NCBI RefSeq assembly: GCF_050920415.1
Contig: NZ_CP169309.1
Length of the DNA: 64,000 nucleotides
Direction: 5' to 3' (one strand)
DNA from: Escherichia coli
Lineage (GTDB): Bacteria > Pseudomonadota > Gammaproteobacteria > Enterobacterales > Enterobacteriaceae
The notes beneath the pieces were generated by a model that ran no database searches, had not been told where the DNA came from, and was given only the letters and a program-made list of their open reading frames with translations. The position numbers were made by a program, and so were the translations under genes. The stretch's first letter is position 1, and every line of letters begins with the position of its first letter. This document shows positions 54,081 through 55,980 of the stretch, in pieces.

Positions 54081-54182
54081 TTGCGCCAATGTGTAATTTG
54101 GCCCATTCTCATCGTTATTCGCCCATTTGCCCACATGCACAGTACGGGCTGCACGCTACGCTAATGCCATCAATACTGTGAT

Positions 54183-54971
54183 GTGGAGCAAATCATGAAA
54201 ATTACTCAAATTCGTAATGCCACCCAAATTATCCAATACGCTGGCAAAACATTTCTTATTGACCCGTTACTCGCGCCTAAAGGAAGTTATCCGGGTTTTG
54301 CCGGAACGGCACGCGCAGAAATCCGCAATCCAACGGTAGAATTACCGTGCGATTTAACAACGTTACTCAACGTTGACGCCCTAATAGTGACCCATTTGCA
54401 TGAAGATCACTGGGACGAAACAGCCTCCCGCGTCGTCCCCAAAGATAAACTGATTTATGTGCAAAATGAGCAAGATGCTGAATCACTGCATAAACAAGGA
54501 TTTACGCATCTTACCGTACTTGCCGACGAGACTAAATTTGGCGATATTACTCTGCATAAAACGACAGGGCAGCACGGCTCCGATCGCACCTATGCAGACC
54601 CGGCTATGGCGAAGCGTTTAGGCGCAGCCTGCGGCGTTGTTTTCCAGCACCCGACAGAGAAAACGCTCTATCTGGCTGGCGATACCCTCTGGCGTGATGA
54701 CGTCGAGGCTACAATGCTAACTTTCCAACCAGAAGTGGTGGTGTTGAATGCCGGATTTGCGCATGTTCTGGGGCATGGCGCGATAATTATGGGAGCTGAA
54801 GATATTCTCAAAACACATTTTACCCTGCCAGAAGCGCAAATTGTCGCGACACATATGGAGGCCGTAAACCACTGTTTGCTGACGCGTGATGCGCTCAAGG
54901 AATACGCCAGAGATAATCAAATTATCGAATTTGTGAACGTACCAGAAGATGGTGAAACGTTGACATTCTAA
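54183..54971 (+). CDS. MBL-fold metallo-hydrolase (262 aa)
   Basis: HxHxDH motif (THLHEDHWDE) and downstream His/Asp ligands typical of the metallo-beta-lactamase superfamily; to my knowledge absent from K-12 at this position. Confidence 0.8.
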   Translation: MEQIMKITQIRNATQIIQYAGKTFLIDPLLAPKGSYPGFAGTARAEIRNPTVELPCDLTTLLNVDALIVTHLHEDHWDETASRVVPKDKLIYVQNEQDAESLHKQGFTHLTVLADETKFGDITLHKTTGQHGSDRTYADPAMAKRLGAACGVVFQHPTEKTLYLAGDTLWRDDVEATMLTFQPEVVVLNAGFAHVLGHGAIIMGAEDILKTHFTLPEAQIVATHMEAVNHCLLTRDALKEYARDNQIIEFVNVPEDGETLTF

Positions 54972-54990
54972 TTCGGAGATAAAGAGTGTT

Positions 54991-55944
54991 ATGCGCCCGC
55001 TAACTGTTGCCATTATCGCCGTTGCCGGTTTTAGTCCTTTTCACCTTTCCGTACCGTTTATCGTGTTTAGCGAAAAAATGGCGGAGAAAAAACGCTTTCA
55101 TGTAATTATCTGCGCTGAAAAGCCGGGAAATGTGGACTCTGCCGATGGGTTTTCCGTAACCGCCACCCATGACTATACGGCAGTCATCCAGGCGGATATT
55201 GTGATAATTCCTTACTGGGGAACAATTACACAAAAACCGCCACAAAAACTGCTGGAAGCCTTAACGACCGCACGAGATAACGGGGCACAGATTGTCGGGC
55301 TTTGCCTGGGCACGTTTGTGCTCGGCTATGCAGGTTTACTGAACAATAAGCGTGCTGCCACGCACTGGGAGTTCGAGCGTGAATTTCAGGCACGTTTTCC
55401 ACAAACACATCTGGATATTAACGCGTTGTATGTAGACGATGATGGCATTATTACCTCTGCCGGTACTGCCGCGGCGCTGGATTGCTGTTTGTATATTGTT
55501 CGGCAACATTTTGGCAGCGACTATGCTAACCATATTGCCCGACGGATGGTCGTACCGCCATATCGCACCGGCGGTCAGGCGCAGTTTATAGAGCAACCGG
55601 TGCCGAAAAATACCCATGATGAACGCATTAACCTCCTGCTGGATTACCTGCGGCAAAACATTGCGCAACAGCATGATCTCGACTCGCTGGCTCAGCGAGT
55701 AATGATGAGTCGCCGCACACTAACCCGTCATTTTATGAAAGCGACCGGTTCGAGTATCGCCGAATGGCTCATCACTGAACGCTTACGCCGTAGCCAGGAA
55801 CTGTTGGGATCCAGTCAGTTGCCCGTTGAGCGGATAGCGGCTGAGGTGGGTTTTCTCTCACCTGTGACCTGGCGTCAGCATTTTAAATCTCACTTCGGCG
55901 TCAGCCCCGCAGAATGGCGCAAAACCTTTCGTGGTATGGCATGA
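54991..55944 (+). CDS. GlxA-like AraC-family transcriptional regulator (DJ-1/PfpI-like N-terminal domain plus AraC HTH; 317 aa)
   Basis: N-terminal class-I glutamine amidotransferase-like fold (IVGLCLGTFVLGYAGLL) and C-terminal AraC HTH (RRTLTRHFMKATGSSIAEW...WRQHFKSHFGVSP). Confidence 0.8.
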   Translation: MRPLTVAIIAVAGFSPFHLSVPFIVFSEKMAEKKRFHVIICAEKPGNVDSADGFSVTATHDYTAVIQADIVIIPYWGTITQKPPQKLLEALTTARDNGAQIVGLCLGTFVLGYAGLLNNKRAATHWEFEREFQARFPQTHLDINALYVDDDGIITSAGTAAALDCCLYIVRQHFGSDYANHIARRMVVPPYRTGGQAQFIEQPVPKNTHDERINLLLDYLRQNIAQQHDLDSLAQRVMMSRRTLTRHFMKATGSSIAEWLITERLRRSQELLGSSQLPVERIAAEVGFLSPVTWRQHFKSHFGVSPAEWRKTFRGMA

Positions 55945-55945
55945 T
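55917..55945 (+). promoter_or_regulatory. lacI promoter (-35 GCGCAA, -10 CATGAT) inside the 3-prime end of the upstream AraC-family gene
   Basis: Sequence GAATGGCGCAAAACCTTTCGTGGTATGGCATGATAGCGCCCGGAAGA matches the classical lacI promoter; the -35 is the site of the lacIq mutation. Confidence 0.75.
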
Positions 55946-55980
55946 AGCGCCCGGAAGAAAGTCAATTCAGGGTGGTGAAT

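Follow-up and report, generated by a model that had tools for sequence, protein, structure and literature searches.

The 64,000-nucleotide stretch of Escherichia coli DNA analyzed here (contig NZ_CP169309.1; "the window" throughout) contains two genes between mhpR and lacI, one encoding a metallo-hydrolase of the SaxA family and the other a GlxA-family transcriptional regulator known as OvrA. These genes probably constitute an old, vertically inherited operon of a SaxA-type hydrolase and its cognate regulator, located beside lacI and subsequently lost from most E. coli through two deletions. The genes of this interval are as follows.

53247 to 54080, plus strand: mhpR (context; annotation of the RefSeq record), whose stop codon forms the left edge of the segment missing in K-12-type genomes
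54195 to 54971, plus strand: SaxA-family metallo-beta-lactamase (MBL)-fold metallo-hydrolase, ortholog of EDL933 z0443, WP_000705451.1, 258 aa, predicted isothiocyanate hydrolase
54991 to 55944, plus strand: ovrA, ortholog of EDL933 z0442, WP_001247700.1, 317 aa, GlxA-family regulator
55981 to 57063, plus strand: lacI (context), with a GTG start at 55981, beginning 36 bp past ovrA

Two intact open reading frames were observed on the plus strand of the mhpR-lacI interval, at 54183-54971 (262 aa from a GTG codon) and 54991-55944 (317 aa), confirming the presence of the two complete genes described in an initial annotation of this DNA. The hydrolase gene is thus intact, but its length of 262 aa was not retained, as the start used in RefSeq by the Prokaryotic Genome Annotation Pipeline (PGAP) is an ATG at 54195. 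The resulting 258-aa protein aligns to residue 1 of SaxA and GGAG is present 6 nt upstream of the ATG, which is more likely to be the true start than the GTG at 54183. The hydrolase matches Pfam family Lactamase_B_2 (6e-11), whilst the 317-aa protein, designated 'GlxA family transcriptional regulator' by PGAP, matches DJ-1_PfpI at residues 6-171 (7e-12) and HTH_18 at residues 233-311 (3e-19), as well as HTH_AraC. OvrA therefore has the two-domain architecture of the GlxA family, with a DJ-1/PfpI-like sensor domain at the N-terminus and an AraC-type double helix-turn-helix (HTH) at the C-terminus. The domain assignments made initially (an MBL fold, and DJ-1/PfpI with an AraC HTH) were borne out, as was the description of the pair as a small hydrolase-regulator module of detoxification type.

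The unit, to which the initial annotation gave no name, is the already published O-island 19 (z0442 = ovrA, z0443) of enterohaemorrhagic E. coli O157:H7 EDL933, and OvrA has been characterized experimentally (PMC8565820, PMC10877973). Some RefSeq records name the regulator 'ovrA: OI-19-encoded virulence regulator OvrA', and gene order and position match those of O157:H7 RIMD 0509939, whose RefSeq record names ovrA and whose DNA is 98% identical. Comparison with O157:H7 revealed identity at 316 of 317 OvrA residues and 255 of 258 hydrolase residues. The window and O-island 19 share the same locus between mhpR and lacI and the same two genes, with proteins 99% identical, and the described size of the island (1834 bp) is close to that of the segment in the window (about 1833 bp); they differ in that the window derives from a non-O157, deep-branching E. 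coli lineage. The object is thus already known, and the locus as such is ordinary and catalogued. In the literature O-island 19 appears as an O157-specific island with z0443 of unknown function, whereas here the pair is interpreted as ancestral and z0443 is placed in the SaxA family. The original O-island 19/ovrA study is reportedly that of Liu et al. 2020. In a 2009 array study Z0443 was RpoS-dependent (10-fold) in EDL933 and its function was listed as 'Unknown'.

A census of 5426 complete E. coli genomes indicated that both genes are kept in only 435, mostly O157:H7, O145 and related strains with a few others. Alignment of the interval against the K-12 junction and other genomes, as had been proposed, therefore identified the pair as a minority feature and not as content carried by most E. 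coli. In K-12-type genomes, including strain HS, the K-12 derivative TOP10 and E. coli C, mhpR and lacI are separated by 76 bp with no gene between them, in agreement with the gap of under 100 bp given in the initial annotation, and a single junction is common to 4452 genomes. A second, B2-type state was found in 488 genomes, among them CFT073, Nissle 1917 and the type strain ATCC 11775; these have lost the complete mhp operon together with the hydrolase gene and the greater part of the regulator gene, and yaiL is joined to a 99-bp 3′ fragment of ovrA that is a pseudogene in the PGAP annotation. Both states retain part of ovrA.

55912 to 55944, plus strand: part of ovrA surviving in K-12-type genomes (codons E308 to A317 and TGA), from alignment of the junction of 4452 genomes
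55846 to 55944, plus strand: part of ovrA surviving in B2-type genomes (last 32 codons and stop), a pseudogene fragment by lacI in 488 genomes, with its junction to yaiL

The K-12-type spacer before lacI opens with GAATGGCGCAAAACCTTTCG(T/C)GGTATGGCATGA, 33 bp corresponding to the last ten ovrA codons (E-W-R-K-T-F-R-G-M-A) and the stop codon. Intact Citrobacter regulator genes end in homologous codons (…EWRKTFRG…), and across 61 regulators the conservation of W309, R310 and F313 is 95% or higher. As the B2-type fragment is longer and has a different left junction, these relics indicate two independent deletions, both from an ovrA-containing ancestor.

Gene order in Citrobacter points in the same direction. 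In Citrobacter rodentium the order is MBL-GlxA-lacI-lacZ-lacY, all in the same orientation and with 33 bp between the regulator gene and lacI, and in C. sedlakii it is mhpR-MBL-GlxA-lacI-lacZ; lacI lies downstream in 13/13 Citrobacter loci with a hydrolase 77-80% identical. Protein identities between E. coli and Citrobacter are of similar magnitude across the region (hydrolase 77-80%, OvrA 73-80%, LacI 78-84%, LacZ 79-81%). Between the lineage of the window and O157, the proportion of synonymous differences (pS) was 0.06-0.10 for the two genes and 0.13-0.16 for mhpR and lacI, and the ratio of nonsynonymous to synonymous proportions (pN/pS) was 0.08 for the hydrolase gene and about 0.014 for ovrA, values indicative of old divergence under strong purifying selection and not of recent import. 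From these comparisons the pair is the ancestral neighbour of lacI and the K-12 state a deletion, with the evidence being one-sided; the pair would already have stood beside lacI before the lac regions of Escherichia and Citrobacter diverged. The polarity implied by the earlier description of an insert was thus backwards, as demonstrated by Citrobacter synteny and by the ovrA relics in K-12-type and B2 genomes, and the position next to the lac and mhp regulators, previously regarded as curious, represents conserved ancestral synteny.

Several further observations concern the lineage from which the window derives. Its sbcC and lacZ are respectively 93% and 94.7% identical to those of nearly all other E. 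coli, only 18 genomes group with it, and the strain appears to belong to a deep-branching lineage close to the limit of the species, perhaps a group resembling a cryptic clade. The frmRAB genes are about 97% identical to those of other complete E. coli genomes, the window being unusually divergent where tested (2168-5311, 42045-44390 and 57186-60260). The pair itself is present at 99.7% identity or more to the window in at least about 16 genomes. DNA identity between this lineage and O157:H7 is 98.2% and 97.5% for the module, 96.3% for mhpR, 94.6% for lacI and 91.2% for the 5′ end of lacZ; the higher conservation of the module could reflect stronger constraint or a somewhat younger coalescence through recombination.

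An alternative, corresponding to the customary sense of 'O-island' and to the insert of the initial annotation, is that O157 and related lineages acquired the two genes horizontally as a genomic island placed between mhpR and lacI. In its favour are the lack of the genes in K-12 and in 92% of complete E. coli genomes and a G+C content of the two-gene segment (0.46-0.52) somewhat below that of the flanks (about 0.55). SaxA-like genes do travel on plasmids (PMC7036374), 128 E. coli plasmids among them, and a 13-nt inverted repeat is present at the boundaries of the indel. This alternative is highly improbable, being contradicted by the ovrA relics: the supposedly empty K-12 site holds ten ovrA codons and a stop homologous to intact Citrobacter 3′ ends, and B2 genomes hold the longer fragment with another left junction. 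It is also at odds with the gene order shared with Citrobacter, with a divergence from Citrobacter equal to that of lacI and lacZ, and with a synonymous divergence from O157 of the same order as that of the flanks. No integrase, transposase or other mobility gene and no tRNA was found in or beside the segment, nor were flanking repeats of the element type, and with 33 or 99 bp of ovrA kept at the 'empty' sites the segment does not have the character of a mobile element. The inverted repeat has the following location.

54081 to 54093: left arm, TTGCGCCAATGTG, of an imperfect 13-nt inverted repeat, at the left endpoint of the K-12-type deletion, with its partner arm at 55910-55922 (repeat search and junction comparison)

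A transposon-like insertion bounded by this repeat was considered and rejected, since the right arm lies outside the indel and is kept in K-12, so that the repeat is no boundary of a mobile unit. The core of the repeat is TTGCGCCA / TGGCGCAA, and its two arms fall at the two ends of the K-12-type deletion. An AATG microhomology is also present at 54088-54091 and 55913-55916; the deletion may have been hairpin-assisted.

By the classical assignment, the two elements of the lacI promoter fall at the 3′ end of ovrA.

55917 to 55922, plus strand: lacI -35 hexamer GCGCAA (site of the lacIq up-mutation), within ovrA codons W309-R310-K311; letters read directly, role from the classical assignment
55940 to 55945, plus strand: lacI -10 hexamer CATGAT, overlapping the ovrA stop TGA (55942-55944), with a 17-bp spacer to the -35 hexamer; classical assignment

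This arrangement, with the -35 element GCGCAA at the lacIq site, the -10 element CATGAT and a 17-bp spacer, is reportedly the placement of Calos 1978. It agrees with the description of an A-to-C change in the lacI -10 element that makes an NheI site (GATAGC to GCTAGC) and of a PvuI site a few bp upstream of the -35 element (PMC7049694). The sequence GAATGGCGCAAAACCTTTCGYGGTATGGCATGATAGCGCCCGG upstream of lacI is identical in the window and in K-12-type genomes, so that the classical lacI promoter corresponds in the window to the coding 3′ end of an intact ovrA but in K-12 to a non-coding relic. By the classical -35/-10 placement, then, the K-12 lacI promoter region is a fossil 3′ end of ovrA. 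The distance from the -35 element to the end of the deletion upstream of it is 5 bp in the K-12 type and 71 bp in the B2 type. Both deletions would have stopped short of the lacI promoter because it lies in the last ten ovrA codons and stop, a position that could explain why two independent deletions end just upstream, and the fossil origin may help to explain the weakness of this promoter. A sigma-70 consensus scan of 53950-56100 detected neither the lacI nor the hydrolase promoter, as expected for lacI given its weakness, such a scan being uninformative for weak or activator-dependent promoters. No terminator was found between ovrA and lacI in the consensus scan of the same interval, and folding agrees (z-score -0.7), suggesting that read-through from the hydrolase operon into lacI is possible where the pair has been kept. 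No paper stating the relationship of the lacI promoter to ovrA was found in a partial coverage of the literature. Relative to the literature searched, this relationship appears to be new, as do the SaxA assignment of z0443 and the conserved operon with its operator described below.

The hydrolase was placed in the SaxA family by full-length homology and a complete set of MBL metal ligands. Among all PDB sequences it matched 6BRM ('metal-dependent isothiocyanate hydrolase SaxA') with an E value of 4.1e-88 over residues 1-258 against 1-259 (54% identity) and the uncharacterised 3RPC with an E value of 3.5e-72; the next PDB MBL families after SaxA, NAPE-PLD and UPF0173, gave E about 0.01 only. 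The HxHxDH motif noted initially is intact, as THLHEDH (H67-x-H69-x-D71-H72 in 258-aa numbering), and the metal set of H67, H69, D71, H72, H127, D163 and H220 is invariant in 86 homologs including the window protein, as are D23, D74, D94, D203 and H226. Isothiocyanates are toxic breakdown products of glucosinolates. SaxA catalyzes the reaction R-N=C=S + H2O -> R-NH2 + COS (PMC7036374) and, according to that source, citing van den Bosch 2018, five enterobacterial SaxA clusters with mutual identity as low as 45% all have isothiocyanate-hydrolysing members. The z0443 product is thus most likely an isothiocyanate hydrolase, and as a binuclear-metal enzyme of this family it would convert isothiocyanates to an amine and carbonyl sulfide. 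The suggestion of a lactone or thioester substrate in the initial annotation can be made more precise by the match to SaxA (E 4e-88 versus about 0.01 elsewhere). The assignment is concrete and cheap to test. No paper linking z0443 or O-island 19 to SaxA or isothiocyanates was found in the literature searched. Allyl isothiocyanate and mustard are food antimicrobials used against O157:H7.

The resemblance to SaxA (PDB 6BRM; the sax locus of Pseudomonas and Pectobacterium) comprises full-length homology, the same metal ligands and a neighbouring regulator gene. In Pseudomonas and Pectobacterium the locus contains saxA, saxB, the regulator gene saxC and the efflux genes saxD/F/G, whereas the E. 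coli locus is without saxB and efflux genes. At the genomic locus whose enzyme is most similar to the crystallised SaxA (Mixta, 90%), the same GlxA-type regulator is encoded 17 bp downstream.

To examine conservation of the hydrolase-regulator module, one genome per species was scanned for relatives; 285 were found, and the best 80 loci plus five obtained earlier were analyzed. In 60 of 65 gammaproteobacterial loci the hydrolase gene was followed in the same direction by a full-length OvrA-like gene (50-80% identity), usually after a gap of 0-130 bp; none of the 20 loci from alphaproteobacteria, Bacillales and other groups outside the gammaproteobacteria showed this arrangement. Paired loci include those of Citrobacter, Klebsiella, Kluyvera, Enterobacter, Leclercia, Yersinia, Photorhabdus, Providencia, Proteus, Serratia, Pantoea, Pectobacterium, Mixta, Vibrio, Salinivibrio, Marinomonas and Idiomarina. 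These data are consistent with an old operon that would have been inherited vertically in Enterobacterales and other gammaproteobacteria, and a candidate operator was identified in its promoter.

54098 to 54139, plus strand: operator candidate TTGGCCCATTCTCATCGTTATTCGCCCATTTGCCCACATGCA in the hydrolase promoter, 42 bp; family consensus tTGgCCCaATnncATCGntnntTGnCC..ggCnaC, half-sites 21 bp apart

The motif tTGgCCCaATnncATCGntnntTGnCCntnnggCnaC was present in 58/58 non-redundant promoters of the pair, 96-152 bp upstream of the ATG, with invariant TG.CC elements exactly 21 bp apart. Direct-repeat geometry of this kind is typical of AraC-family operators. A position weight matrix (PWM) trained on 43 sites, exclusively from genera other than Escherichia and Citrobacter, yielded a single outlier when applied to both strands of the window, at 54098-54139, with a score of 31.8 against 4.6 for the next site and a background mean of -51.6 (standard deviation 13). 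In leave-one-out scans the best match within each locus of approximately 12.7 kb fell in the hydrolase promoter for 41 of the 43 loci, the other two having a second, divergent site of similar score. The 54098-54139 site is most likely an OvrA operator, binding being predicted from this conservation, and OvrA bound to the direct repeat would switch the operon on once the enzyme's substrate, or an electrophile related to it, is sensed by the DJ-1-like domain.

Variants of the module were also observed. Two Enterobacter loci and one Leclercia locus carry an equal-score divergent second operator-like site on the minus strand before an alpha/beta-hydrolase gene (L051 5746, L059 5712, L061 5705), so that the regulon of these species may extend slightly further. 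The loci of Vibrio, Proteus and Alteromonadaceae (L037, L038, L040, L042 and L082; about 6790-7205) have a gene of 133-136 aa for an NTF2/SnoaL-like (ketosteroid-isomerase-related) protein between hydrolase and regulator, a recurrent third member of the module and of the same kind as a plasmid-encoded 'ester cyclase'. The latter belongs to a second, mobile SaxA-like module found on E. coli plasmids such as pTET-GZEC065 (IncY; L092 4001-6192) and on 128 Escherichia plasmids in all, whose genes, situated beside transposase and integrase genes, encode the 133-aa 'ester cyclase', an HTH regulator of 329 aa and a hydrolase sharing about 64% identity with its chromosomal counterpart.

It is unlikely, though consistent with several of these observations, that the SaxA-fold enzyme acts on another physiological substrate in enteric bacteria (for example another heterocumulene or electrophile, a lactone or a thioester) and that the regulator senses this compound instead of isothiocyanates. 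Identity to the assayed enzyme is only 54%; the recurring partners, the NTF2/SnoaL-like 'ester cyclase' and the alpha/beta-hydrolase behind the second operator, are generic small-molecule enzymes; RpoS dependence in EDL933 suggests a general stress role; and the module occurs in marine Vibrio and Marinomonas, for which glucosinolates have no obvious source. Set against this are the occurrence of isothiocyanate hydrolysis in all five enterobacterial SaxA clusters, down to 45% identity (PMC7036374), and the distance of any other characterised MBL family (next PDB E about 0.01).

OvrA shares its architecture with the GlxA/GATase1-like AraC regulators GbdR and FtrA (PRK09393). Its identification as an equivalog of either was rejected, with a score of 324.4 bits against the FtrA model (NF006902; cut-off 425) and 126 against that of GbdR (cut-off 480), indicating that OvrA belongs to a distinct subfamily, defined here through its association with saxA-like genes and an operator of its own. 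In 61 hydrolase-linked regulators C105 (within the nucleophile elbow G103-L-C105-L-G107), C165, C166, H125, W126 and E129 are invariant. The best match of the sensor domain to a solved structure was isonitrile (isocyanide) hydratase InhA (E 7e-13), a DJ-1 enzyme with a catalytic cysteine. InhA and OvrA share the nucleophile-elbow cysteine of the DJ-1 superfamily and both act on, or are linked to, N=C-type electrophiles, but OvrA is a transcription factor and the resemblance provides only a lead on its sensing mechanism. Isothiocyanates react readily with thiols, making covalent or near-covalent sensing by C105 an attractive mechanism, though a purely inferential one of low probability. A broader proposal, that OvrA directly senses isothiocyanates or related electrophiles through C105 and thereby couples dietary glucosinolate products to detoxification, to LEE1/ler (in the locus of enterocyte effacement, LEE) and to LacI, is speculative and doubtful. 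If true, glucosinolate breakdown products would induce their own detoxification by the SaxA-like enzyme, would modulate LEE1/ler and hence attachment in LEE-positive strains, and would raise LacI through ovrA-lacI read-through, there being no terminator between the genes; when most E. coli lost the module, lacI would then have been freed from glucosinolate input, with a weak relic promoter remaining.

The published work on OvrA concerns virulence. As reviewed in PMC8565820 and PMC10877973, OvrA recognizes a motif of 17 bp within the LEE1 promoter, is an activator of ler and favours adherence and colonisation, on the evidence of electrophoretic mobility shift assays, chromatin immunoprecipitation with quantitative PCR, DNase footprinting at that promoter and adherence and colonisation phenotypes of an ovrA mutant, whereas deletion of z0443 is without virulence phenotype. 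The window itself contains no LEE. Such published data favour the view that OvrA is essentially a virulence regulator of LEE-positive E. coli whose adjacency to the hydrolase gene has no regulatory meaning. This view is nevertheless very unlikely given conservation of the pair and its operator in more than 50 species of Enterobacterales, Vibrionales and Oceanospirillales, and strong purifying selection on the pair in a lineage unrelated to O157. Most of these species are not known to carry the LEE. Conservation beyond LEE carriers together with purifying selection suggests that LEE control was a later recruitment, OvrA having additionally come to activate LEE1/ler in LEE-positive strains, as published. 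A regulator described as a virulence factor of a horizontally acquired island would accordingly be an old core-like gene with a candidate native target, the adjacent hydrolase gene and its operator, which changes how recruitment of OvrA to the LEE is to be read. The SaxA assignment also supplies a candidate ligand class for OvrA, no inducer being named in the reviews PMC8565820 and PMC10877973.

A number of points weigh against the interpretation presented here of an ancestral SaxA-OvrA operon beside lacI. The hydrolase gene was found in no representative of any other Escherichia species in the one-genome-per-species scan, so that within the genus the case for ancestry draws on the relics, Citrobacter and a single deep E. 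coli lineage. The K-12 junction holds 9 nt (GACACCATC) that fit neither flank, and no source for the 9-12 nt of this junction (TTGACACCATCG, allowing up to 2 mismatches) was found inside or near the deleted segment. The lacI -35/-10 assignment was taken from the literature and is not the result of a tool. Identity of 54% to SaxA is no guarantee of the same substrate, deletion of z0443 was without virulence phenotype, and no isothiocyanate phenotype is reported in the reviews PMC8565820 and PMC10877973. Finally, the published OvrA footprint at LEE1, GACATTTAATGATAATG, bears no resemblance to the conserved operator at 54098-54139, indicating that one of the two may not be a high-affinity OvrA site.

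Two other regions of the window were noted. Between tauA and frmR, at 34093-41885, lies a cluster of genes for a response regulator, a MASE1 sensor kinase, a UhpC-like major facilitator superfamily transporter and ABC substrate-binding, permease and ATPase proteins; it is absent from the corresponding position in CFT073, and in Citrobacter rodentium the same cluster is found directly upstream of the hydrolase gene. On the minus strand at 9227-11506 there is a large DUF2773-domain gene, annotated as a pseudogene with an internal stop.

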